Below are positions 1,340-54,294 of a DNA stretch of 64,000 bases, in pieces (within the stretch, counting starts at the first letter, position 1; each line of letters starts with the position of its first letter). The notes under the pieces are model-generated. The model worked only from the letters and a program-made list of their open reading frames with translations, was not told the origin of the DNA and ran no database searches. Made by a program: the position numbers and the translations under genes. Source of the stretch: an uncultured Candidatus Saccharibacteria bacterium (GTDB lineage: Bacteria > Patescibacteriota > JABMPQ01 > JAQVVF01); the NCBI GenBank assembly GCA_964574655.1, contig CAZNOH010000001.1, positions 329,852-393,851 on the forward strand, written 5' to 3'.

Positions 1340-2215
1340 ATGGCAAAATTGGGAGGATATTATTATTCAAAAAAAAGAGATAGAGGACTTTCTTCTTACG
1401 CTAAAAAAATGCGGAAGATGAAAAAAAGGTCAATCCAAAGTTTAGGAAAAACTAAGCCAAATTTTGGTGTTTCTTTGCGAGGCAAAACAACGCTTATTGC
1501 TTTGTTAATTGCAGTGATAATTTGCGCTGGCATATTATTTTTTAGTAATTTTTTTGCAGTTAAAAAAGCGGTGTTGGTTGGAAACAACAAAATTAAAAGT
1601 GAAGATATTGAAAGTATATTGAAAGATGCTATTTCTGGAAACAGATTTGTTGTTTTTTCAGCAAGTAATATTATGTTAATTAATGATGGAAAGATAAAAA
1701 ACAAGATAATGGAAGAAATGCCGTTGATTGACAGAATCGAAATAAAAAGAATGTTGCCGAATACTTTGAAATTAAATATTCCTGAAAGAGATCCTTTTGC
1801 TATTTGGGAGACAGGCGGAAAAAAATATCTAGTTGATTCAAAAGGAAAAGTTTGTTATGAAATCAAAGATAATGTTAATATGGACTTGCCAATAATATAT
1901 GATAAGCAAAATAAAGCAGTTGAGGTAAAAGGAGAGGCAACTTTTCCGCAACAAATAAATGTTATTAGAAATATTTTGAATTCATTAAAAGATAAAACAA
2001 AATTAGAAGTTGAATTTGTATCTTTGCCAAATTCATTAGGCTTTGAAGTTGATGTAAAAACAAAAGACGGATTTATGGTTTACTTTAATACTGAAAGAAG
2101 CGTTGATTCTCAAATAAGAGATTTAAAAAGTGTTTTGGATAAACAAGTTGCTGAGCAAAAAAGTTCTCTTCAGTATATTGATTTAAGAGTTGAAAACTGG
2201 GTATACTATAAGTAA
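1340..2215 (+). CDS. ftsQ: FtsQ/DivIB-like cell division protein (basic N-tail, one TM helix, POTRA-like domain)
   Basis: Position downstream of ddl as in dcw clusters; TM segment TLIALLIAVIICAGILFF followed by KKAVLVGNNKIKSEDIESIL POTRA-like region. Confidence 0.5.
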   Translation: MAKLGGYYYSKKRDRGLSSYAKKMRKMKKRSIQSLGKTKPNFGVSLRGKTTLIALLIAVIICAGILFFSNFFAVKKAVLVGNNKIKSEDIESILKDAISGNRFVVFSASNIMLINDGKIKNKIMEEMPLIDRIEIKRMLPNTLKLNIPERDPFAIWETGGKKYLVDSKGKVCYEIKDNVNMDLPIIYDKQNKAVEVKGEATFPQQINVIRNILNSLKDKTKLEVEFVSLPNSLGFEVDVKTKDGFMVYFNTERSVDSQIRDLKSVLDKQVAEQKSSLQYIDLRVENWVYYK

Positions 2216-2279
2216 AAGGCAAAATTAAAAATTAAAAAGTAAAAAACGACAATTAAAAAGTAAAAATAAATTAAAAATT

Positions 2280-2657
2280 GTGGCGAAATTTAAAGAAAAA
2301 ATTGGTTTATTGAAAAAACATCCATATTTTAGATGTAAATTTAGTTTGATTATGCTTTTTAACAGTTTGCTCTTGAATTTAAGCCTGTGGATGTTATTAT
2401 ACTTTAGAATAAAGCCTTCAAATTTTCCTGTGCCTTTGCACTATTCAGTTTATTTTGGCATAGACAATATTGATTATTGGTATAAAGTATTTTTTGTGCC
2501 AGGAATAGGTGTTTTATTCATTTTTTTGAATTTGTTTCTTTGTATTTGGTTTTATAATAAAGAAAGATTTATCACGCATTTTTTAAGTGTGAATAATTTT
2601 GTTGTTCAAGGCGTTTTGTTTGGTTTTGTGATTCCATTAGTATTTATGCAAACATAA
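2280..2657 (+). CDS. small polytopic membrane protein, hypothetical (non-ATG start)
   Basis: Hydrophobic 125-aa ORF; no homology recognised. Confidence 0.3.
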   Translation: MAKFKEKIGLLKKHPYFRCKFSLIMLFNSLLLNLSLWMLLYFRIKPSNFPVPLHYSVYFGIDNIDYWYKVFFVPGIGVLFIFLNLFLCIWFYNKERFITHFLSVNNFVVQGVLFGFVIPLVFMQT

Positions 2658-2760
2658 TACGAATAAAAATACGAATAATGCGAATGTTGCGAATTACGAA
2701 TCGACGTATTTGCAATTCGTATCATTTGCATTATTCGTAAGGGCATTCGTATTATTATAT
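2657..2760. promoter_or_regulatory. 104-nt imperfect palindrome built from 5 forward CGAAT(A) units and 3 reverse ATTCGTA units, upstream of GT2 gene
   Basis: aatacgaataaaaatacgaataatgcgaatgttgcgaattacgaatcgacg / tatttgcaattcgtatcatttgcattattcgtaagggcattcgtatt read directly. Confidence 0.4.
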
Positions 2761-2761
2761 T

Positions 2762-4306
2762 ATGAGAGCAGATCAAATTAAAAATAGAAAAGATAGGATT
2801 TGTTATCGGCTGTATGAAATATTGCCAGGCTTTTTGTCTTGGGGAGTTTTGTTTGGTAGTATAGTTTTATCTTTCATACATCCTGTTTGGGTAGCTATTT
2901 TTATTATTTGTTTTGATGTTTATTGGTTGATAAAAGTGCTGTATTTGGCAGTGTATTTGCTTGTTTCTTATCGAAGGTTAAAAAAGAATGAAAAAGAAGC
3001 ATGGCTCACAAATTGCAAAAAATTGAATCCTACTGACAGGCCAAAATTTGAAGAGATCTATCATCTGGTTATTATTCCAATGGTTTTTGAAGATATTGAA
3101 ATTGTTAAGCAGACTTTTCAAGCTTTAATTTGTGCAAACTATCCGAAAGATAAGATGATTGTGGTTTTGGCAACTGAAGAGAGGGCAGGAATTTGGGCTT
3201 GCAAGGTTGCTGATCGGATAAAAGCGGAATTTGGCGATAAATTTTATCATTTTCAAGTAACAAAACATCCAGATAATATTATTGGCGAGTTAAAAGGCAA
3301 AGGATCTAACGAAACTTGGGCAGCAAAAGAAATTCGTAAATTTATTGATGAAAAAGGATTGTCTTATGAAAGTGTAATTACATCTGTGTTTGATGTTGAT
3401 ACTTGCGTACATCCAGAATATTTTGGCGTTTTGACTTATAAATTTTTGACTGTTCCTGATCATTTGCATGCTTCTTTTCAACCAGTGCCAATGTTTTTTA
3501 ATAATCTTTGGGATTCTCCGGCGTTAATGAGAATCGTGGCAATGAGTACGACTTTTTGGATGCTGATGGAGCAAGGAAGGCCAGAAAAATTGTATACTTT
3601 TTCTAGCCATAGTATGAATTTTAAAACTTTGACTGAAATTGGATTTTGGGAAACCGATGTGGTGTCTGAGGATTCAAGAATATTTTGGCAGTGTTTTAAT
3701 TATTATAATGGCAATTATCGTTGCGAGCCTTTGTTGATTCCTGTTTATATGGATACAGTTTTGGCAGGCACTTTTTGGCAAAGCGTTGTAAATCAATACA
3801 AGCAACAAAGAAGATGGGCATATGGAGCAGAAAATATTCCTTATGTTTTAACTAGATTTTCAAAAAATAAAAAGATTCCATTTTTTAAAAAGCTTGATCA
3901 TGGTTTTTGGGTGGTTGAGGGCATGTTTTCTTGGGCAACAAGCTCAATAATAATTTTTATGGCTGGCTGGTTGCCATTGTTTGTAGGTGGAGAGGCTTTT
4001 TCAAAATCATTATTAGCTCAAAATTTGCCTTATGTGACGCAAATATTAATGACAATGGCAATGTTGGGCATGATCGTTTCTGCTACTCTCAGCATGTTTA
4101 TGCTTCCTCCAAGGCCAAAGAGACATGGGCAACACAAAATATTATTTATGTTGTTGCAATGGATTTTATTGCCGATTTCAACAATTTGTTTGGGTGCTTT
4201 TCCAGCATTAGATGCGCAAACTAGATTAATGTTTGGAAAATATATGGGATTCTGGGTGACTGAAAAGTCAAGAAGGCGTGAGCCAGAAGTAAAAAGTCAA
4301 AATTAA
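2762..4306 (+). CDS. membrane-bound family-2 glycosyltransferase (processive, cellulose-synthase-like)
   Basis: N- and C-terminal TM helices; cytoplasmic domain with DxD-like (FDVDT) and QxxRW motif (QQRRWAYG). Confidence 0.55.
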   Translation: MRADQIKNRKDRICYRLYEILPGFLSWGVLFGSIVLSFIHPVWVAIFIICFDVYWLIKVLYLAVYLLVSYRRLKKNEKEAWLTNCKKLNPTDRPKFEEIYHLVIIPMVFEDIEIVKQTFQALICANYPKDKMIVVLATEERAGIWACKVADRIKAEFGDKFYHFQVTKHPDNIIGELKGKGSNETWAAKEIRKFIDEKGLSYESVITSVFDVDTCVHPEYFGVLTYKFLTVPDHLHASFQPVPMFFNNLWDSPALMRIVAMSTTFWMLMEQGRPEKLYTFSSHSMNFKTLTEIGFWETDVVSEDSRIFWQCFNYYNGNYRCEPLLIPVYMDTVLAGTFWQSVVNQYKQQRRWAYGAENIPYVLTRFSKNKKIPFFKKLDHGFWVVEGMFSWATSSIIIFMAGWLPLFVGGEAFSKSLLAQNLPYVTQILMTMAMLGMIVSATLSMFMLPPRPKRHGQHKILFMLLQWILLPISTICLGAFPALDAQTRLMFGKYMGFWVTEKSRRREPEVKSQN

Positions 4307-38912: not shown

Positions 38913-39731
38913 ATGCCTGAACTTCCTGAAGTAGAAACAATTAAACGACAGCTTGAGACAAAAATAGTTGGCAAAAAAATTAAGAATGTTGAAGTTCGTT
39001 ATGCAAAACTATTGAACATGCTTGAAAAAGAATTTGTTGCTCAGGTTGTTGGAAGTAAAATTATTGCCCTGAAAAGAAGGGCAAAACTTTTAATTTGGGC
39101 ATTATCTGAAAATAAGAATTTGGTTTTTCATTTAAAGATGGCTGGCCAGGTAATTTGGGCTGGAAAAAATCCTAATCCTGCAAAATATACTTATGTTATT
39201 TTTACTTTGTCAGATGGTAATACGGTATTTTTTAATGATAAGAGAAAGTTTGGCTGGGTAAAATTATTAGATTATCAAGAATTTGAAAAGTTATTATTAT
39301 CATATGGTCCTGAGCCATTGGATAAAAATTTTACTTGGCAAAATTTAAAAGAGATATTGTACAAGAAAAAAAGAATCAGAATCAAGCCATTATTAATGGA
39401 TCAAACATTATTGGCTGGAGTTGGAAATATTTATGCTCAAGAAGCTTGCTTTTGCGCTGGAATTTTGCCAGAAAGAAAGGCAGGCGATATAGTTGACAAA
39501 GAAATTGAAAAGCTATATGCTTGCTTGAAAAAAGTATTATTGGAATCTATCAAACATCATGGTACTTCAGCTGATGCCTATGTTGATGCATTAGGGAACA
39601 AAGGCAGTTTTGAAGCTAGATTAAAAGTTTATGGACGACAAGGCGAGAAATGTTATCGATGTGGCGGAATAGTTGAAAAAATGAAGCTTGGTGGACGTGG
39701 AACTTATTATTGTCCGAAATGCCAGACTTAG
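38913..39731 (+). CDS. mutM: formamidopyrimidine-DNA glycosylase
   Basis: N-terminal MPELPEVE, C-terminal zinc finger CYRCGG...YYCPKCQ. Confidence 0.8.
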   Translation: MPELPEVETIKRQLETKIVGKKIKNVEVRYAKLLNMLEKEFVAQVVGSKIIALKRRAKLLIWALSENKNLVFHLKMAGQVIWAGKNPNPAKYTYVIFTLSDGNTVFFNDKRKFGWVKLLDYQEFEKLLLSYGPEPLDKNFTWQNLKEILYKKKRIRIKPLLMDQTLLAGVGNIYAQEACFCAGILPERKAGDIVDKEIEKLYACLKKVLLESIKHHGTSADAYVDALGNKGSFEARLKVYGRQGEKCYRCGGIVEKMKLGGRGTYYCPKCQT

Positions 39732-39766
39732 TTCGAAAGTTATAAAGTTATAAAGTTATAAAGTTT

Positions 39767-40049: not shown

Positions 40050-40161
40050 AAAGTCCGGATCTTGCACTTGTGAAACAAGCTATGAAAGTTGTCCTTATTG
40101 TAGTGCTTATACCAAATTCAGCGAATGTGTTCTAGCTAAAAAACTATTTGTTTGTCTAGCT

Positions 40162-40227
40162 GGTTGCAGAGTCCTCTCTGCAACCACATTATCGCGTTGA
40201 TTTGGTTTCAGAGAGGACTCTGAAACC
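40162..40227 (+). other. twin perfect hairpins GGTTGCAGAG-TCCT-CTCTGCAACC and GGTTTCAGAG-AGGA-CTCTGAAACC with mutually complementary loops
   Basis: Read directly; G/T difference compensated in stem. Confidence 0.45.
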
Positions 40228-40298
40228 AGCATCGCAACAGATTAAATGAATTTGGTATTATAAAAGTAGTTTCGGCAATCATAGATAATAAGTTCTTT

Positions 40299-40321
40299 AA
40301 CTGGTTTTTACCAGTTTTTTG
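40299..40321 (+). terminator. rho-independent terminator AACTGG-TTTTTA-CCAGTT + T6
   Basis: Hairpin + T-run. Confidence 0.5.
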
Positions 40322-40328
40322 TTGCCTC

Positions 40329-40420
40329 ACTCGAATATTTTTTCGAATATAAGCGAATACTTTTTCGAATATTTGAAAATAGATTAGAATATTATTCGAA
40401 AATAAATTAGAGTGAGATCT
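40329..40420 (+). promoter_or_regulatory. TTCGAATAT x5 direct-repeat array enclosed by CTCACTC/GAGTGAG inverted repeat, upstream of prfB
   Basis: ctcgaatattttttcgaatataagcgaatactttttcgaatatttgaaaatagattagaatattattcgaaaataaattagagtgag. Confidence 0.4.
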
Positions 40421-40461: not shown

Positions 40462-41545
40462 ATGCAGGATTTATTAACAAAATTAGAAAAAATAAAACAG
40501 GACATTGCGAAAGTAATGGATCGTCTTTGATATTGTTAGTAAAAAAGAAAAAATAGCAAAATTAGAAAAAGATATCCAAAGCCCTGATTTTTGGAAGAAT
40601 ACCAGAAAAGCAAAAGCAATAATGCGTGATCTTGATAGTCTGAAAAAATTTGTTGAATTGTGGGAAGGATTAATGCTTGAAACAAAAGATTTAATTGAAG
40701 TGATTGATATTGCAAATGAAGACGAATCGTTGAAAAAAGAAATAGAACAGCGTTTTCTAAAGCTGAACAAAAAATTTGAACAGCATGAATTTGAAATAAT
40801 GATGTCCGGTGATTATGATTTGAACAATGCAATTTTGATGATTCATTCTGGTACTGGTGGTACAGAAGCGCAGGATTGGGCAGAGATGTTACTTCGAATG
40901 TATTTGCGATATTGTGAAAAAAGAGATTGGCAGACTGAAATTTTGGATAAAATAATGGGCTCGGAGGCAGGAATAAAAAGTGCTATAGTAAAGGTGACTG
41001 GAAATTATGCTTACGGCTATTTGAAGGCTGAAGCTGGAATTCATCGTTTGGTTCGTCAATCGCCGTTTGATTCTGATCATGCTAGGCACACATCTTTTGC
41101 TTTAGTTGAAGTGATTCCAGAATTGTCTTCTGATGTCAATATAAAAATAGATTCAAAAGATTTACGAATTGATACATATAGATCAAGTGGAGCAGGAGGT
41201 CAGAGTGTTAATAAAACAAGCTCAGCAGTCAGAATTACTCATTTGCCATCAGGCATTGTTGTTGCTTGTCAGAATCAAAGATCTCAGATTCAGAATAGAG
41301 AAACAGCAATGATGATTCTGAAATCAAGGCTTTATGAAAAAGAATTAAAAAAGAAAAAAGAAGAAAAAGCAAAATTGCGAGGCGAGCATCTTGAGGCAAG
41401 TTGGAGCAATCAAATCAGATCTTATGTCTTGCATCCGTACAAAATGGTAAAAGATCATCGGACAGAATATGAAGTTGGTGATGCAGAAGCTGTGTTAGAT
41501 GGTGATTTAGATGGATTTATTGAGGCGTTTCTGAAGATAAAATAA
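40462..41545 (+). CDS. prfB: peptide chain release factor 2 with programmed +1 frameshift at CTT TGA (40525..40530)
   Basis: Frame-0 MQDLLTKLEKIKQDIAKVMDRL then TGA; +1 frame continues DIVSKKEKIAKLEKDIQSPDFW...; SPF and GGQ motifs downstream (SPFDSDHARHTSF, SGAGGQSVNKTSSAVR). Confidence 0.85.
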
Positions 41546-43409: not shown

Positions 43410-44456
43410 ATGGTATATCCGGAAATCGAAATTACAAAAGATGATTTGAAAAAAATAATTTATTTCATCTTAATGAAATTTAAAGGTGATCAGCTTCATA
43501 GGCAAGGTACGTCTGCTAAGCGTGATTTGATAGGAGGATATATTGAGCGCTGGTTTAACAAAATTGCTGAAACAGTTATTTTTGATAATTTATTAAACAA
43601 AAAAGATTACGAAGCGGTTTCTGATTATTTTATTTATTCAGATGACAAGAAGAATGTTCCAGATATACTTGGATTAAAAAAGCTTAAGAAAATATTGCCT
43701 TTTGTGAAATATAATAACGGTACTTGGGATACCATATCGGGAATGCCGAGAATTGAAGTTAAAGTTTTTAGAAAAGACCAAGCTCTTGTAAGCATTCGTG
43801 AGCCACAAATGATTGATGATTATTATGTTATTATTGATTCTGATTTGAACGGTGATTATTTAACTGCAATTTTTAGGGACGAGGTTTTTGAAGACAAGTT
43901 TTTTAATAGCTTAATTGTTGATGATGTGTTTATTGAAAGCGACATTGATAATAATATGATCGAACATATGAAAGTTATGCCAGCTAAAAAAATTGGAACA
44001 ATGAGGTTAATAGGTATTTATACAAAAAAAGAATTCAAAGATAATTCAATCTTATGTCGCAAGGGCGTTAGTCCGTATTATTTCGGATGGGCATCTAATA
44101 AAATTTTGGCTAGTAAATTACGATTAAACGAAAAATTGAATTTGGATAAAATGGGACGGTTTGTTTATAAGTATAATAGCTCATATGTTTGCTTGCCAGT
44201 GGCGATAGATAGTCCTAAAAATAATAAAATTACTGTATTAAAAAGAAATAAAGGATCGGTATATATCAATTCGTTAGAAAATATAAGTATTGGAGGCATA
44301 AAGTTAAAAGCAGGGGATATTTGCGTCGAGTTTAAAAAATTTGACCGAAGTTCAAAATGGGACGAGAATGTTTTACTGAAACAAACTCTTGAAAAGTATG
44401 GAAAAGATTCCACGAAAGATTTGATCGATCTTTTTGATGAGTTAGTGAGCAAGTAG
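43410..44456 (+). CDS. hypothetical protein; candidate restriction endonuclease partner of the adjacent C5-MTase
   Basis: Convergent with MTase gene with a 1-nt gap; possible PD..ExK-like segment IIDSD...FEDK; no recognised homology. Confidence 0.35.
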   Translation: MVYPEIEITKDDLKKIIYFILMKFKGDQLHRQGTSAKRDLIGGYIERWFNKIAETVIFDNLLNKKDYEAVSDYFIYSDDKKNVPDILGLKKLKKILPFVKYNNGTWDTISGMPRIEVKVFRKDQALVSIREPQMIDDYYVIIDSDLNGDYLTAIFRDEVFEDKFFNSLIVDDVFIESDIDNNMIEHMKVMPAKKIGTMRLIGIYTKKEFKDNSILCRKGVSPYYFGWASNKILASKLRLNEKLNLDKMGRFVYKYNSSYVCLPVAIDSPKNNKITVLKRNKGSVYINSLENISIGGIKLKAGDICVEFKKFDRSSKWDENVLLKQTLEKYGKDSTKDLIDLFDELVSK

Positions 44457-44457
44457 G

Positions 44458-46035
44458 TTATTCCATTGCTTTTTTTATTTGCTTTGCGACTGCTTCGACG
44501 ACAGGTACGCTTACAGAATTTCCTAGTTGTTTATATAGTGCTGAATCTGAAATTTCTGGCAATTTGAAATTAGCCGGAAATCCTTGAATTTTTGCGCATT
44601 CTAGCGGAGTCAACTTTCTGATGCCTTTTTTATCTTTAATGATTGGGACATTGTGTCCGCCAGTTCCCATATTCGCTGTCAATGTCGGGCATACGTCGCT
44701 TTTATTCTCTCGAACATACTGTCGGCGCCATTGATAAACCTTATTGCTGTCTTTTATAAAATTTTTTAATTTTTTAAATAGCGGTTTTCCGTTATAATAA
44801 TATTTTTCAGGCACATTTTTTTCTAGCAGATCAGTAATTTTTTTTGTGAGTTTTACTGGCTTTGGAAATTCAAATTTGTCGCAATAATCTTTATTTTTGA
44901 AGCCAGCAATGTAAATGCGTTCGCGATTTTGGGGAATATTTCCATATTCCATGCTGTTCAAAACTTTAGCTTTTAAATAATAGCCAAGACTTTCCAATGT
45001 TTCTTGAATTGTTTTAAAAGTTTTTCCATCGTCATGGCTTTTCAGATTTTTTACATTTTCAAGCAGGAATCCCTCTGGTTTTCTAGCATCAAGTATTCTT
45101 GCAATATCAAAAAATAAATTGCCTCTGCCTTTTTTATCATTGAATCCTTGCCTATATCCAGCAATGGAAAATGCTTGGCAGGGAAATCCGCCGAGAAGAA
45201 AATCGAATTTTGGCAGATCATCAATGCCAATTTTTCTTATATCTTCAACTACAAGTTTTGATTTTTTGAAATTTAAATCATAAGTAAGCTTGCATTTTTC
45301 GTCAAAATCATTAGAAAATACCGTATTGAATCCAGCTTTTTCAAAACCAAGCCTAATTCCGCCGACTCCTGCAAAAAGATCGATAGTTTTAAATCCGTGT
45401 TTGATTTTTTTTGCAATTATTTTTTCTGGTTCTTTGGAAAAATTACTGATAACTTGTATTACAACGCCTCTTACTTCAACTTCGTTTCTGAAAAAGGGGA
45501 GCATATTTTGATTTCTTGGTTGAAGTCGGAATCTGTTTTGTTCTCTGTAAAGCTTTTTAAGCGTTGCTTCATTGTCATCAATGATAGCAACGACAGTTTG
45601 GCCATTTTCTGCTGAAGACTGTTTTTTTATAATTACAGTATCGCCATCAAATATTCCTTCATCGATCATGCTATCGCCAACAACGCGAAGAGCATAATAG
45701 TCCTTCTTATTTTTGATAGATGGATTAAATACTGGAATATTTTCTTGAAAATTTTCGATGGCTTCAATCGGTTTGCTGGCAGCTATATTTCCAATAACCG
45801 GAATATCGATAACTGTTCTCTGTTTTTCTTTTGGCGTAATGTCGCGCGCGGAATTATTATTTTTTGAGAGATAGCCTTTTTTTATCAGAGTATTAATATG
45901 TTCATGGATTGTTGATACTGCCTTAAGCTTCAGTTTCTTTCTTATTTCTTCGATTGTTGGCGAAATTCCGTTTTCTGTGCGATAGGCATTAATAAAATCG
46001 AATACTAACTTTTGTTTTTGTGTTAAATTTTGCAT
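44458..46035 (-). CDS. fusion protein: full-length LexA-like repressor (wHTH + S24 autopeptidase) fused to C5-cytosine DNA methyltransferase
   Basis: LexA: LTQKQKLVFDFI..., VIGNIAASKP (cleavage-loop position), RVVGDSM (Ser), ATLKKL (Lys). MTase: DLFAGVGGIRLGF (I), GGFPCQAFS (IV), ENV (VI), QNRERIYI (VIII), GNSVSVPV (X). Confidence 0.8.
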   Translation of the reverse strand: MQNLTQKQKLVFDFINAYRTENGISPTIEEIRKKLKLKAVSTIHEHINTLIKKGYLSKNNNSARDITPKEKQRTVIDIPVIGNIAASKPIEAIENFQENIPVFNPSIKNKKDYYALRVVGDSMIDEGIFDGDTVIIKKQSSAENGQTVVAIIDDNEATLKKLYREQNRFRLQPRNQNMLPFFRNEVEVRGVVIQVISNFSKEPEKIIAKKIKHGFKTIDLFAGVGGIRLGFEKAGFNTVFSNDFDEKCKLTYDLNFKKSKLVVEDIRKIGIDDLPKFDFLLGGFPCQAFSIAGYRQGFNDKKGRGNLFFDIARILDARKPEGFLLENVKNLKSHDDGKTFKTIQETLESLGYYLKAKVLNSMEYGNIPQNRERIYIAGFKNKDYCDKFEFPKPVKLTKKITDLLEKNVPEKYYYNGKPLFKKLKNFIKDSNKVYQWRRQYVRENKSDVCPTLTANMGTGGHNVPIIKDKKGIRKLTPLECAKIQGFPANFKLPEISDSALYKQLGNSVSVPVVEAVAKQIKKAME

Positions 46036-46131
46036 GTTTGTTTTATAAAATAATTTGTGCTACAATTTGATTATAACCGAAAATTAACCGAAATTCAAAG
46101 CGGTAGTTATCCACAGCTTTAATTAAATTTT

Positions 46132-46533
46132 ATGGACGTTTTTTCTAAAAAGAAGAGAAGCGAGATAATGTCGAAGATTCGTTATGAGAATACGGAAGTT
46201 GAGAGGATTATTTTTAGTGGATTGATAAAAAGAAAGATATATTTTCAGAAGCATTATAAAAAGGCTATTGGTTCGCCAGATATTGCTTTTCCGAGAAAAA
46301 AGATAGCAATATTTATCGATGGTGATTTCTGGCATGGAAGGCATTTTGCGAAAACAGAAAAAAGGCTTCCTAAAGAGTATTGGAGAGAAAAGATAAAGTC
46401 AAATATTTTGAGAGATAAAAGGAATCGATCAAAATTGAAAAGACAGGGTTGGAAGGTATTGAGGTTTTGGGAAGGCGAGATAAAGATGCGACCGAAAAAG
46501 ATAATAGGTCTCTTGATTATGTTTATAAAGTAG
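46132..46533 (+). CDS. vsr: very-short-patch repair endonuclease
   Basis: RSEIMSKIRYENTEVE...GSPDIAFPRKKIAIFIDGDFWHG. Confidence 0.75.
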   Translation: MDVFSKKKRSEIMSKIRYENTEVERIIFSGLIKRKIYFQKHYKKAIGSPDIAFPRKKIAIFIDGDFWHGRHFAKTEKRLPKEYWREKIKSNILRDKRNRSKLKRQGWKVLRFWEGEIKMRPKKIIGLLIMFIK

Positions 46534-46578: not shown

Positions 46579-48438
46579 ATGTCTACAAAAAAACAAATAA
46601 AGGAAATTCTTGAAAATATTGATAATGTTGCTGAAAACTCTAAATATTTGCATTCAGTAGCAGATGAATATCGAAAAGTTAGAGATTTGTATTTTGTGAA
46701 ATTGAAAGACGAAAAGAGTGCCAAAAGAATTCAATCGTTAATTGACGTGTTGAATTTTGTGATTTCTGACAATATGCTAAAAGAAGTATCGTCAGGAGTG
46801 TCAGAAAATGGAATATGTTGGAAATATCCTGATATTTCATTTTTTACTGAAAATGGTTTTAAAGAAGTGGAACAGGCATTTAAGACTACAAAAAGTATTA
46901 AACTAAAAGCAAGGTATTCAGATTTTTTTTGGTTATCCAAGAAGGATTATAAAAAAGCCAGAATCGCATTTGATAATTATTTCATTTTAATTAAGAAATA
47001 TGAAGAAGCGGACAAGAAAAATCCAATTGGTTATTTTGGACTTGATGTTTTAGATTCTACTAGAAGAGCTTTTCAAATATCAAAGAGTATTAGTTATCGA
47101 CAATCAGACATTATAAAAGAGATAGAGCGTTTGAGTTTGAATTTTAATTCAAAGAGTAGTTCGAAGTATAAACTAGTAATTGATCTTGTTTCAATAGCAC
47201 TCAATAACAAAAAAGAGTTTAAGAGTGAAGAGTTTTGGCAAGGATTAGTTCTTATTTGTGAGAAATATTATAAAGAATTGAGTAAAGACAAAAATTGGTA
47301 TTTTTCTAGGGATTATCTAAATAATGCTAAAAAAATTGAATTGATGATCTTTAGTAAGAAAAGCAAAAAGTGGGATAAATTGGTTGCAAAAAGTTATCTA
47401 TGCGAGGCTGATTATCATGGAATGCAAGAAAGTTTGGCAGAGCTACCTTCTTTATTGAGCTCAATTGAAGAATATAAAAAGTTAAAAGATTTCAGGAAAA
47501 CTGAAGAGTTAAAGAAACGCTACGAAAAAGCATCCAAAAATGTGAGACTTAAAGAATTAAGAACAGAGATAAATATTTCGAGAATTGTTACTGTTGCCAA
47601 AAATCAAGCAAATGAGTTGTGCAAACAGCGACCCGACGAAGTTTTTAAATATTTACTCTTGAGTCCGGATTTATTTCCGATATACAATAGTATAGAAATT
47701 GAGGCGAAAAAAAATGAAAAAAGATTTGTGTTCATGCATCTAGGCAGTCAAATTGTTTTTGATCAAAAGATGAATATTGCTCGAAGATATTGCTCTAAAG
47801 AAGAAAAACATTTTTTTGCAATTTTACGACAATTTGGAGTGTCTTTTATAATTAACAAGATTTATACAGATATTATTTTTGAGAAGTTAATCGAGAAAAA
47901 TATTTTGACATGGGTTAACACAAGTTCTTTCCTAAGAAAATATTGTTGGTACAAAAATGTTTATGAAGTAAAGAATGATAAAGGAATAACTTTATTTAAA
48001 TCACAAAAATGGCTTGATCTTATGGCACCCGGAATAAAATTATATTTAAATAACGCGAAAAAATATTTAAGAAAAAAAGATAAAAAAATTCCTTATTCAG
48101 AAATTATTTTGGCATCAGATTCATTGGCTATGAAAATAGAGGGAGTGATTAGAGAAATCTTCCGCAAATTGGGTAGATCTACTTTTAAGGTTAAAAGAAA
48201 GGGTGACGAGAACATTACAGTGGAAAAAGATTTAAATGATTTTTTGATTGATAATTTTTCAGAGCAAATGTTTTCTAAGGATTTGACATTATTAATGAGA
48301 TTCTTATTAATAGAACCATCGGGTTATAATCTAAGAAACAACATAGGACATTGCTTGATTCAAAAAGAAGATTATAATTTGTCAAATTTGCATTTTTTAT
48401 TTTTGATTTTGCTCAGATTGGGTAATTATAAATTTTAA
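46579..48438 (+). CDS. large hypothetical protein with C-terminal HEPN-like Rx4H motif (LRNNIGH); candidate defense protein
   Basis: 619-aa ORF, no P-loop; 12-nt gap to downstream Cas4-like nuclease gene. Confidence 0.4.
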   Translation: MSTKKQIKEILENIDNVAENSKYLHSVADEYRKVRDLYFVKLKDEKSAKRIQSLIDVLNFVISDNMLKEVSSGVSENGICWKYPDISFFTENGFKEVEQAFKTTKSIKLKARYSDFFWLSKKDYKKARIAFDNYFILIKKYEEADKKNPIGYFGLDVLDSTRRAFQISKSISYRQSDIIKEIERLSLNFNSKSSSKYKLVIDLVSIALNNKKEFKSEEFWQGLVLICEKYYKELSKDKNWYFSRDYLNNAKKIELMIFSKKSKKWDKLVAKSYLCEADYHGMQESLAELPSLLSSIEEYKKLKDFRKTEELKKRYEKASKNVRLKELRTEINISRIVTVAKNQANELCKQRPDEVFKYLLLSPDLFPIYNSIEIEAKKNEKRFVFMHLGSQIVFDQKMNIARRYCSKEEKHFFAILRQFGVSFIINKIYTDIIFEKLIEKNILTWVNTSSFLRKYCWYKNVYEVKNDKGITLFKSQKWLDLMAPGIKLYLNNAKKYLRKKDKKIPYSEIILASDSLAMKIEGVIREIFRKLGRSTFKVKRKGDENITVEKDLNDFLIDNFSEQMFSKDLTLLMRFLLIEPSGYNLRNNIGHCLIQKEDYNLSNLHFLFLILLRLGNYKF

Positions 48439-48450
48439 AAATATATATTT

Positions 48451-49209
48451 ATGTCCACATATTACAAATCCAATCGTACAAAAAATATCTACGATCCAAA
48501 AAGCAAAGAGCCATACAAATTATCTCGCTCAAAGATTGAGAGTTTTTTGAGATGTCCGAAATGTTTTTATTTAGACAGGCGTCTTGGAGTTGGCCAGCCA
48601 CCTAGTTATCCTTTGAATTTGAATACTGCAGTTGATCATCTTCTCAAAAAAGAATTTGATTTGCACAGAGCAAAACAAAAAGCGCATCCGTTGATGAAAG
48701 CTTATGGGATTAAAGCAGTTCCTTTTGCTCATGAGATGATTAATGAGTGGCGAGAAAATTTTAAAGGCGTTAGATATCATCACAAGTCGACCAATTTCAT
48801 TATTTCTGGAGCAGTTGATGATTTATGGAAAGATACAAAAGGCAAGATTATTGTTGTTGATTACAAGGCGACAAGCAAGGATGCAAAAGTAACTTTGGAT
48901 GCAGAATGGCAAGGCGGATACAAAAGGCAGATGGAAATATATCAGTGGTTGCTTCGCAAGAATGGTTTGAAGGTTTCTGATACTGGTTATTTTGTTTATT
49001 GCAATGGAAAGAGAGACAGAAAAGCATTTGATGCAAAATTAGAATTTGATATTGATTTATTGCCATACGAGGGCGATGCTTCTTGGATTGAAAAGACTTT
49101 GAAAGATATTAAAAAATGTTTGAATGGAAAAATGCCGAAATCAGATGATGATTGCGATTATTGTAATTATCGGAATGCAGTTGAAATCGCAGAAAAACGC
49201 AGAAGCTAA
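48451..49209 (+). CDS. Cas4/RecB-family PD-(D/E)xK nuclease with four-Cys cluster
   Basis: N-terminal RCPKCFYL (CPRxxY-like), VDDLW...IIVVDYKAT (D..DxK), QMEIYQ (QxxxY), C-terminal CDYCNY. Confidence 0.65.
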   Translation: MSTYYKSNRTKNIYDPKSKEPYKLSRSKIESFLRCPKCFYLDRRLGVGQPPSYPLNLNTAVDHLLKKEFDLHRAKQKAHPLMKAYGIKAVPFAHEMINEWRENFKGVRYHHKSTNFIISGAVDDLWKDTKGKIIVVDYKATSKDAKVTLDAEWQGGYKRQMEIYQWLLRKNGLKVSDTGYFVYCNGKRDRKAFDAKLEFDIDLLPYEGDASWIEKTLKDIKKCLNGKMPKSDDDCDYCNYRNAVEIAEKRRS

Positions 49210-49565: not shown

Positions 49566-49577
49566 GATCTTGATTAT

Positions 49578-49648
49578 TCCGGGATCATCTAATGGTAGGA
49601 TAGCAGGTTCTGGACCTGCTTATCTTGGTTCGAATCCAAGTCCCGGAG
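49578..49648 (+). tRNA. tRNA-Gln (anticodon CTG)
   Basis: Acceptor TCCGGGA/TCCCGGA 7 bp, anticodon stem GCAGG/CCTGC with loop TTCTGGA, T-arm CTTGG-TTCGAAT-CCAAG; manual fold, D-arm short. Confidence 0.65.
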
Positions 49649-49662
49649 TGAAATGTAATTTT

Positions 49663-53467: not shown

Positions 53468-53619
53468 GGTCTTCCTCCCTTGGCTGTTTTTCGGTTTAGA
53501 GGGTGCGAGAATCTTTAGAACAATTTAAAGTAACATATTTTATAATATTATGCAAGAGTATTGCGCAGATTTGTTTTCAGTTGATTTTCAGCTTTATTTG
53601 ATATAAAATAGTTAAGCTT

Positions 53620-54294
53620 ATGAGAATATTAGTAATCGAAGATGACAAAAAGATTGCCTTAGCAATCAAAAAAGGGCTAGAACAAGAGTCTTATTCTGTT
53701 GATGTTGTTTTTGATACAAAAGATGACAAATTAGGTTTAGCTTTATTGATAAATTATGACTTAATAATTTTGGACAGAATGTTGCCTGGAATTTCTGATG
53801 GTCTAAATATTTGCAAAAAATTAAGAAATGAAGGCAAAAAAATGCCAATTTTAATTTTGACTGCAAAAGATAAAATTAATGAACGAGTGGAAGGCTTGGA
53901 CGCTGGAGCAGATGATTATTTGATTAAGCCTTTTGCTTTTGAAGAATTATTGGCAAGGGTTAAAGCATTGCTTCGGAGACCAAATCAAGCTTTGAATCAA
54001 GTTTTAAAAGTCGGTGATTTGTCATTAGATACACAAACTTTCAAAGTAATGCGAAAAAATATTGAAATTAAATTATCAAGTACTGAATTCAAGTTATTAG
54101 AATATTTAATGAGAAATAAAGGTAGGATTTTGACAAAAGACAATATTATGGAACACGTTTGGGATTATGATGCAGAGATTTTGCCAAACACAGTTGAAGT
54201 ATTCATTGGCTATTTGCGTAATAAAATCGATAAGCCATTTTCTAATTCGGGCCATGTTCAAACAATCAGAGGATTTGGGTATAAAATAGAATAG
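53620..54294 (+). CDS. OmpR/PhoB-family response regulator
   Basis: Receiver (ILVIEDD, LDRMLPG, KPF) + winged helix (RGFGYKI). Confidence 0.8.
   Translation: MRILVIEDDKKIALAIKKGLEQESYSVDVVFDTKDDKLGLALLINYDLIILDRMLPGISDGLNICKKLRNEGKKMPILILTAKDKINERVEGLDAGADDYLIKPFAFEELLARVKALLRRPNQALNQVLKVGDLSLDTQTFKVMRKNIEIKLSSTEFKLLEYLMRNKGRILTKDNIMEHVWDYDAEILPNTVEVFIGYLRNKIDKPFSNSGHVQTIRGFGYKIE

Follow-up and report, generated by a model that had tools for sequence, protein, structure and literature searches.

Self-protection in Type II restriction-modification (R-M) systems is explained today by C proteins, by short helix-turn-helix (HTH) domains fused to methyltransferases (MTases), by antisense RNAs and by promoter methylation. 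Repair synthesis, recombination, establishment in another host and replication stress can each cause methylation to fall behind; to our knowledge, none of these control mechanisms senses DNA damage, and we know of damage-triggered restriction alleviation only for Type I enzymes. C proteins are dedicated regulators that time and balance Type II R-M expression (PMC12707154), and HTH-MTase fusions autoregulate their R-M systems through an operator in the MTase promoter (PMC12707154, PMC3978073, PMC2760811). In the alleviation of Type I restriction, ClpXP degrades HsdR after DNA damage (PMC4231737, PMC11109961). Here we describe a gene from an uncultured Candidatus Saccharibacteria bacterium, found in a stretch of 64,000 nucleotides of contig CAZNOH010000001.1 (assembly GCA_964574655.1), which as a whole is called the window below. 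The gene encodes a complete LexA repressor in frame with a complete C5 cytosine MTase, in a single protein, and we read it as the modification subunit of a Type II R-M system. The original prediction, made from the letters of the window, gave this architecture as one without a known description, and full-text searches of the searchable literature brought up no account of a LexA-MTase fusion; the study of the Patescibacteria SOS network by Sanchez-Osuna, Barbe and Erill (2017, Environ Microbiol) could mention such proteins. The word LexA is absent from a 270,000-character 2025 EcoSal Plus review of R-M biology.

By analogy, the functionally nearest relatives would be the SsoII-type regulatory MTases. 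As in the C5 MTases of the SsoII, Ecl18kI and EcoRII type, a DNA-binding regulator is fused N-terminally via a flexible linker and a putative operator lies in the promoter of the MTase gene (M). The fusion is nevertheless not a member of that family, because the regulator is non-homologous and the operator type and gene arrangement differ. A whole LexA of 200 aa, with winged HTH and S24 domains, stands in place of an Xre-like HTH of about 70 aa; the operator is an 11-bp direct repeat instead of an inverted repeat; and the nuclease gene (R) and M are convergent with no operator at the R promoter, whereas SsoII-type genes are divergent with the operator between their promoters. Unlike the SsoII-type regulator, the LexA module is common to all MTase classes and has a predicted proteolytic off-switch built in.

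Compared with canonical LexA, the locus is closest to the Alphaproteobacteria class with GTTC-N7-GTTC boxes, a known direct-repeat class of LexA boxes (as cited in PMC8565304). It shares the equivalog match, the operator on its own promoter, the period-11 direct-repeat box and, across the family, the Ala-Gly/Ser/Lys cleavage machinery. It departs from canonical LexA in the 310-aa MTase at its C-terminus, in its restriction and defence neighbours and in the Ala-Ser of the window copy; furthermore, SOS genes carrying the box were not found nearby, in the window or in 66 related loci. As in R-M systems with C proteins, a dedicated controller would set R-M timing and balance, but C proteins are small, stand-alone proteins of the Xre type whose usual target is R, whereas here LexA is fused to M and has no site at the R promoter. 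Like Type I alleviation, the circuit proposed below would reduce self-restriction at times when damage or recombination has produced unmodified sites. The Type I mechanism is post-translational and acts on the R subunit, whereas we propose transcriptional derepression of M through a RecA*-cleavable repressor in a Type II system. What would be new, then, is a regulatory MTase fusion with a qualitatively different regulator, proteolytically switchable and damage-sensing, that is general across MTase classes in a large branch of the bacteria.

The LexA-methyltransferase fusion and its relatives

The fusion gene and its parts are as follows.

44458..46035, minus strand: LexA-C5 MTase fusion gene, one open frame of 525 aa, with three Pfam domains and two NCBIfam models above cut-offs
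45844..46035, minus strand: LexA winged-HTH DNA-binding domain, aa 1-64 (PF01726 LexA_DNA_bind, 57.5 bits)
Within 45844..46035, minus strand: recognition helix S41-T-I-H-E-H-I of the winged HTH, its residue class co-varying with the operator core
45457..45801, minus strand: S24 autopeptidase/dimerisation domain, aa 79-193, with Ser122 and Lys160 (PF00717 Peptidase_S24, 100 bits)
45775..45780, minus strand: cleavage-site codons A86-S87 (IAASKP), by alignment to A84-G85 of Escherichia coli LexA; family consensus Ala-Gly
45403..45441, minus strand: flexible interdomain linker, aa ~199-211 (AlphaFold2 predicted local distance difference test score, pLDDT, ~35; both flanking domains confident)
44470..45393, minus strand: C5 cytosine DNA MTase domain, aa 215-522 (PF00145 DNA_methylase, whole profile, 314 bits)

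The claim that a complete LexA is fused in one frame to a full Dcm-type MTase is borne out by Pfam, NCBIfam and PDB sequence matches, and inspection of the frame showed neither a stop nor a frameshift within the open reading frame (ORF). In NCBIfam, residues 1-199 cover positions 1-202/203 of the lexA equivalog TIGR00498 (177 bits against a cut-off of 111) and the dcm model TIGR00675 scores 341 bits; the PADLOC model MTase_II scores 416 bits. In a PDB sequence search, aa 1-196 aligned with full-length LexA of E. coli and Thermotoga, and aa 211-521 with full-length M.HhaI (8-319, E 4e-58), so that the MTase domain matches M.HhaI end to end; no solved chain in that search spanned both halves. 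All the LexA features first pointed out were located, namely the N-terminal winged HTH, the cleavage loop IAASKP and the S24 domain with its dyad of Ser122 (in GDSM) and Lys160 (in TLKK). The same holds for the MTase motifs I (FAGVGG), IV (P285-C286-Q287), VI (E326-N327-V328), VIII (Q369xRxR373) and X (G505-N506-S507-V508), which are present in order, with the target-recognition domain between VIII and IX. In an AlphaFold2 prediction based on 51 members of the family, both halves fold and residues 199-211 are the sole unstructured segment.

The fusion recurs widely in relatives. Among 5.8 billion proteins searched, at least 120 clusters have these three domains at a length of ~525 aa and 76-90% identity; they come from independent assemblies in NCBI, JGI, ENA and Logan and keep the linker length. 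The named sources of these C5-fusion clusters are all Patescibacteria (Parcubacteria, Staskawiczbacteria, Yanofskybacteria), and their annotation is 'transcriptional repressor LexA' or 'DNA (cytosine-5)-methyltransferase' and never controller-MTase; the fusion is common in Patescibacteria and is not already filed there as a standard C-protein-MTase. Furthermore, we searched the LexA part alone against 1.84 billion representatives at 50% identity. In all of the best ~60 relatives of the module (41-62% identity) it is N-terminal, on proteins of 222-890 aa, and Pfam scans of 20 of them placed every major MTase class behind the same LexA module. The beta-class N6_N4_Mtase forms the largest group; the others are C5 (once together with a second, Eco57I-type MTase), D12/Dam and the gamma-class N6_Mtase/Eco57I/TaqI_C, and named members belong to Patescibacteria or Nealsonbacteria. 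What had been presented as a single-gene oddity is thus a real fusion but one case of a wider rule that extends over all MTase classes.

A metagenome scan with an alignment of the LexA module yielded 80 loci and complements a single-protein contig scan with over-specific peptide patterns (10 loci). About 55 of the 80 loci are fusions of the four MTase classes. Standalone LexAs of the clade usually have a restriction-related gene right behind them. They are followed by a separate MTase gene in L025, L033, L084 and P0129 (overlapping the MTase gene in P0129), and by a gene for a DpnI-family methyl-dependent nuclease, with no methyltransferase, in L092 and P0149 (L176, L177). The gap between LexA and the DpnI-family gene is 14 nt in L176 and L177 and 74 nt in L092, an arrangement suggestive of a Type IIM/IV nuclease under LexA control. 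Relatives farther away that share the promoter design stand at the heads of classical lexA-dinB and lexA-uvrB operons (L081, L086). A mainly phage-borne origin was rejected, just two LexA-MTase fusions (L093 and L094) being present in the twelve best-matching of 80 viral loci. Both lie on IMG/VR viral contigs, are LexA-beta-MTase fusions and have an operator in inverted orientation, TATAATCGAAA(A/G)T-N-AATCGAAAGT.

The cleavage site sets the window copy apart from its family. LexA is cut between Ala84 and Gly85 (PMC3159453). When aligned to the E. coli protein, 118 of 120 close homologues and all 57 diverse fusions have Ala-Gly at this position, and the window protein, with A86-S87, is the only one of these with Ala-Ser; a syntenic relative 90% identical to it (L003) has Ala-Gly. 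Ser122 and Lys160 correspond to S119 and K156 of E. coli, and the Ser and Lys are invariant across all 177 fusion sequences examined. Judged by these alignments, the cleavage site and catalytic dyad are shown to be under strong purifying selection across the family, which appears built to self-cleave because Ala-Gly is near-universal and the dyad invariant. The Ala-Ser reading of the loop therefore stands for the window protein and fails as a family trait; in the sequences compared, it is a private substitution, and the window protein's cluster has one member. Since the Gly at P1' is replaced by Ser, cleavage is probably slowed or lost in the window genome, where mainly the autorepressor function would be left. 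The LexA cleavage literature covered contained no statement on the effect of Gly-to-Ser at P1'.

Putative operator, DnaA-box-like element and partner nucleases

Upstream of the fusion gene, three elements are packed into the control region.

46070..46098, minus strand: fusion-gene promoter, -35 TTGAAT (46093-46098), 17-nt spacer and -10 TATAAT (46070-46075); consensus scan, 10/12 matches
46074..46095, minus strand: putative LexA operator, two 11-bp direct repeats AATTTCGGTTA / ATTTTCGGTTA (gene strand) that fill the -35/-10 spacer
46107..46115, plus strand: DnaA-box-like TTATCCACA, directly upstream of the -35, a perfect DnaA-box consensus

The original prediction had remarked on a direct repeat of AACCGAAA and on TTATCCACA in the divergent promoter. 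Both are there, the former at 46074-46095, and both turn out to be conserved cis elements across fusion loci. The operator is present in a single copy in the window, and no second one was found either there or in the 66 related loci (~0.5 Mb), nuclease promoters included. Nearly all related loci have the same promoter and operator design, whatever their MTase class, with cores of TTTCGGT, GTTCGGT, ATCGGGT, TTTCTAT or TTTCGAT; the repeat is sometimes inverted and lies just downstream of the -10. Of 62 fusion promoters, 32 contain a period-11 repeat that matches at 8/8 positions, compared with 0.5% of control windows, and 51 contain one that matches at 7/8 or better, compared with 6.9%; periods 8-10 and 12-14 reach 8/8 in 0-1 of the 62.

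Both copies of the repeat change together between loci, and they do so with the protein. An H-[E/Q]-H helix goes with a TCGG core in 19 of 19 non-redundant pairs and an H-[F/Y/H]-[H/Y] helix with a TC[G/T]A core in 26 of 26 (Fisher p 4e-13, without phylogenetic correction). This covariation of core and recognition helix is good evidence, of a comparative kind, for binding of the direct repeat by the LexA module. Autoregulation is likewise indicated by comparison: the repeat sits in the gene's own -35/-10 spacer, is enriched, is specific in period and co-varies with the helix.

The DnaA-box-like TTATCCACA occurs in one exact copy in the whole window. Of 62 fusion loci, 35 have an exact copy no more than 120 nt ahead of the gene, compared with 0.1% of controls; in the upstream regions of L013-L092 the consensus (TTATCCACA / TGTGGATAA) appears in either orientation, usually abutting or replacing the -35, and the element is also found at standalone LexAs of the clade. 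This suggests a replication-linked input by DnaA.

Two further observations concern motifs of this kind. Of 87 loci, 28 have a third conserved motif, GTCAA[T/G], 5-30 nt upstream of the start codon of the lexA module, whereas 1.3% of random 30-mers contain it. It occupies the Shine-Dalgarno position (loci L018-L063), and its reverse complement ATTGAC resembles the -35 of a divergent promoter; the C5 family of the window has (G/A)CAAT directly before the ATG in its place. Additionally, a direct repeat with an 11-bp period, TTTCAGTTGATTTTCAGC, lies at 53575-53592, and 28 nt downstream of it begins a gene for an OmpR/PhoB-type response regulator (53620-54294), itself followed by a histidine kinase gene. 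Given its position, it is less likely to be a LexA box than the OmpR-type regulator's own site.

The presumed nuclease of the system is encoded tail-to-tail with the fusion.

43410..44456, plus strand: candidate restriction endonuclease, 348 aa, PD-(D/E)XK by predicted fold and motif, convergent with the fusion

The stop codons of the two genes are 1 nt apart, and no terminator-like hairpin was seen between them. The ORF has no match in Pfam, NCBIfam or PADLOC; its family comprises 71 clusters, all annotated 'hypothetical', from Patescibacteria plus one Nanoarchaeota record. P84-D85...E116-x-K118 is invariant in the family alignment and the AlphaFold2 model (pLDDT 90.5) has a PD-(D/E)XK fold, so the ORF is best read as a restriction endonuclease. 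The proposal of a convergent candidate endonuclease at a 1-nt distance is in this way strengthened by both fold and motif.

Nearly all fusion loci have a partner gene placed tail-to-tail, at a distance of -23 to +10 nt. Partners with Pfam matches include representatives of RE_Bsp6I, MvaI_BcnI, RE_BsaWI, RE_TaqI, EcoRV, BglII and Endonuclease_7/HNH; an AlwI-type partner is co-directional with the fusion, and the upstream neighbours are heterogeneous and often defence-like. An MTase with an adjacent candidate endonuclease gene, together with paralogous loci that hold named restriction endonuclease families, is what would be expected of a Type II R-M system.

The C5 partner families are diverse (348-aa, 349-aa, 295-aa, 279-aa, Bsp6I-like and 153-aa). 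The MTase domains of the C5 family are 71-91% identical to that of the window whichever partner family is present, and their variable target-recognition region, residues 451-475, is 84-100% identical. This conservation across partner families suggests a single target specificity. In four loci the partner is an RE_Bsp6I-family nuclease, and the MTase domains there share 71-86% identity with that of the window. This links the locus to the Bsp6I R-M family, whose recognition site is GCNGC. GCNGC is on these grounds our best guess and probably the specificity of the window system; unlike in the Bsp6I systems, the partner nuclease in the window belongs to a different, unannotated PD-(D/E)XK family. 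In the window, GCNGC occurs 41 times against 103 expected under a maximal-order Markov model (z -6.1, 0.40 of expectation), a depletion that is only suggestive because 41 equals the simple base-composition expectation. GGCC is about as depleted as GCNGC, with 34 occurrences against 99 expected by the Markov model (z -6.5, ~0.35 of expectation), yet it too is near the base-composition expectation; it may reflect a second, HaeIII-like restriction pressure in the lineage. GGWCC and GGNCC are over-represented in the window.

Profile comparison of the 348-aa family with the 349-aa, 279-aa, 295-aa and Bsp6I-like partners gave no significant match (all hhalign probabilities <1%) and thus no support for a common origin; the 349-aa alignment brings PDIxG and xEIK together, which is suggestive only. 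Locus L011 (SYAR01000044.1, from a metagenome-assembled genome labelled Rickettsiales) has at 2031-4045 an unfused C5 MTase that shares 62% identity with the MTase domain of the window, and behind it, in the same direction, lies a homologue (~43% identity) of the nucleases of the 349-aa partner family. Outside Patescibacteria, then, the R-M cassette occurs in a LexA-free form, and because the same MTase and nuclease families are paired there, LexA appears as an added control module.

Genomic neighbourhood and exchange of MTase parts

Beyond the R-M genes, the following features adjoin the fusion.

46132..46533, plus strand: Vsr very-short-patch repair endonuclease, 133 aa (TIGR00632, 106.3 bits, cut-off 97.85; PF03852 over 1-74; PADLOC Vsr)
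46579-48438: DUF7380/DUF4209 protein, 619 aa (PADLOC candidate defence system PDC-S39)
48451-49209: Cas4-like PD-(D/E)XK nuclease, after the DUF7380/DUF4209 gene
49577-49649: tRNA-Gln, bordering the island (tRNA scan)

With Vsr, a PDC-S39-type protein, a Cas4-like nuclease and tRNA-Gln beyond the R-M genes, the fusion locus lies in a small defence island between ftsX and tRNA-Gln. The divergent Vsr gene, already recognised in the original prediction, scores above the curated cut-off and shares a 96-bp control region with the fusion. An intact Vsr upstream of the C5 fusion is found in 2 of 15 C5 loci (the window and L013), and L005 has frameshifted Vsr remnants at 1230-1449, upstream of its C5 fusion. 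Vsr thus behaves as an optional accessory that is gained and lost.

The lexA cassette is conserved, and its MTase part has been replaced repeatedly. A neighbour-joining tree of the LexA modules mixes the MTase classes and places standalone forms within the fusions; moreover, near-identical promoter and LexA cassettes carry different classes, as in L040 (beta) versus L038 and L041 (D12). The window and L003 share their flanks, ftsE/ftsX on one side and the Cas4-like nuclease on the other, but they have different nuclease partners and differ in the presence of Vsr and PDC-S39.

The window has 32% GC and contains prfB, ftsE, ftsX, secA, aspS and a NAPRTase gene, housekeeping genes typical of a small genome of the Patescibacteria (candidate phyla radiation, CPR). 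No SOS gene was identified among the 10 large window ORFs scanned, and Rfam and tRNA scans of the window returned nothing relevant to the locus apart from the bordering tRNA-Gln. Some observations were made farther from the fusion. The gene prfB has an apparent start at ~40464 and a CTT TGA +1 programmed frameshift site near 40525-40531, and for the 40464-40640 region the ORF list holds only the downstream frame from 40622. Upstream of prfB, at 40300-40420, a cluster of TTCGAATAT repeats lies within an inverted repeat CTCACTC...GAGTGAG, and a long imperfect hairpin is located at ~40150-40240; neither has an Rfam match. At 39735-39765 a short tandem repeat (AAGTTAT/AAAGTTAT x4) directly follows ORF 38913-39731 and precedes a GC-rich hairpin (gcctgctgaaaggcaggt).

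Proposed mechanism, competing explanations and significance

We propose, with moderate confidence, that the family consists of cleavable, RecA*-responsive autorepressors of the MTase gene, whose net effect would be a damage-triggered alleviation of restriction. That such a fusion would couple modification or R-M expression to RecA* had been suggested in the original prediction. The LexA module would dimerise, bind the direct repeat and repress its own gene, so that in a new host a burst of MTase would be followed by a low steady level, as in the SsoII-type regulatory MTases (SsoII, Ecl18kI, EcoRII). RecA* filaments would form upon DNA damage, to which the system's own nuclease would contribute through double-strand breaks at under-methylated sites, and would stimulate the free repressor to cut itself at Ala-Gly. 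In LexA, the DNA-bound form is shielded from cleavage, and cleavage requires RecA* (PMC3159453). Release of the winged HTH would derepress the promoter and yield more MTase; unterminated read-through, antisense into the convergent nuclease gene, may dampen the nuclease, and the adjacent DnaA-box-like site would add a replication-linked input.

It is important to consider several points that weigh against this proposal. The scissile bond of the window protein is itself Ala-Ser, and the helix-operator statistics lack phylogenetic correction. The circuit is a prediction from sequence throughout, from the binding of DNA and the RecA*-dependent cleavage to the specificity of methylation and the activity of the nuclease. 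In E. coli, ClpXP and Lon degrade both LexA cleavage fragments (PMC3159453); if fragment degradation of this type applies, cleavage would destroy the MTase and give no boost. Finally, in the operons of a standalone LexA with a DpnI-family nuclease, derepression would raise restriction instead of protection, so the LexA module is not confined to protective functions.

One alternative concerns the window genome only and is compatible with the autorepressor model for the family: G87S could have made this copy non-cleavable (Ind-like), leaving a constitutive SsoII-like autorepressor without damage input. We hold this possible but doubtful. The window protein is the sole Ala-Ser case among the 120 close and 57 diverse fusions, the substitution falls on the defined scissile bond (PMC3159453), and full loss of cleavage is weakened as an explanation by the small size of Ser and by the intact Ser/Lys dyad and remainder of the loop. 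A sequencing or consensus error is also conceivable, with one assembly and a one-member cluster behind the residue. The classical non-inducible lexA3 allele of E. coli, a G85D change at the corresponding Gly, speaks in favour of this alternative.

We judge it unlikely that the fusion is instead a bona fide master repressor of SOS, the only one in the organism, whose conserved lexA gene has repeatedly served at its 3' end as a landing pad for R-M cassettes, so that the link would be selfish and not regulatory. Such an origin would fit the lexA equivalog model, passed in full, the interspersed MTase classes of the LexA tree with the near-identical cassettes of L040 and L038/L041, the lexA-dinB and lexA-uvrB operons that share the promoter design (L081, L086), and the differences in the genes adjoining the fusion between the window and syntenic L003. 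A master repressor is difficult to reconcile, however, with the operator searches, in which neither the window nor ~0.5 Mb of related loci had a second copy. Even the standalone LexAs of the clade precede MTase or DpnI-family genes (L025, L033, L084, L092, P0129, P0149), which indicates a dedicated R-M role, and the operator cores have diversified with the helix, as expected of insulated paralogous controllers.

Still less probable, in our estimate, is a damage-triggered suicide switch, in which RecA*-induced cleavage would expose degrons, ClpXP and Lon would destroy the S24-MTase fragment, methylation would lapse and a stable nuclease would kill a cell that is damaged or infected, in the manner of abortive infection or post-segregational killing. 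Endings in -VAA and -LAA are degrons, and the N-terminal fragment would end in a similar -IAA. In E. coli, the LexA fragments are degraded rapidly once cleavage has taken place (PMC3159453), and the nuclease gene has no LexA box, so nuclease expression would continue. Against this, cleavage would also derepress the promoter and raise the synthesis of new full-length protein, there is no indication of a degron on the C-terminal fragment, and killing at each SOS episode seems costly for a chromosomal gene kept 76-90% identical in many lineages. An artefact, whether an assembly chimera or a missed frameshift joining two genes, has next to no probability and is refuted by the uninterrupted window ORF and by the at least 120 independent clusters with the same ~525-aa fusion and conserved linker length (NCBI, JGI, ENA, Logan), even if split versions exist (338-aa MTase-only members, the frameshifted L037 and P0129 with its overlapping MTase gene).

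A self-cleaving LexA on the MTase would give Type II R-M systems a direct RecA* input. The proposed circuit is compact and easily testable, with one protein and one 22-bp operator. Furthermore, the co-evolved LexA helix and operator pairs (TCGG with E/Q; TC[G/T]A with F/Y/H) form a natural series that is useful for understanding and engineering LexA specificity. Many 'LexA' annotations in CPR bacteria correspond to R-M subunits, and reconstructions of SOS regulons across this large and uncultivated radiation consequently need revisiting. The recurrence of the module across MTase classes suggests that Patescibacteria tie self-protective methylation to a DNA-damage signal. Tentatively, and with doubt slightly ahead of conviction, LexA may serve in Patescibacteria as a universal, proteolytically switchable controller of restriction systems, linked by fusion or operon to every MTase class and to DpnI-type nucleases, with operators diversified so that several systems can coexist and the DnaA box as a second input. 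If true, this would be the first control circuit for Type II R-M that senses damage, and the sensing of RecA* and of replication would allow self-restriction to be avoided or exploited.

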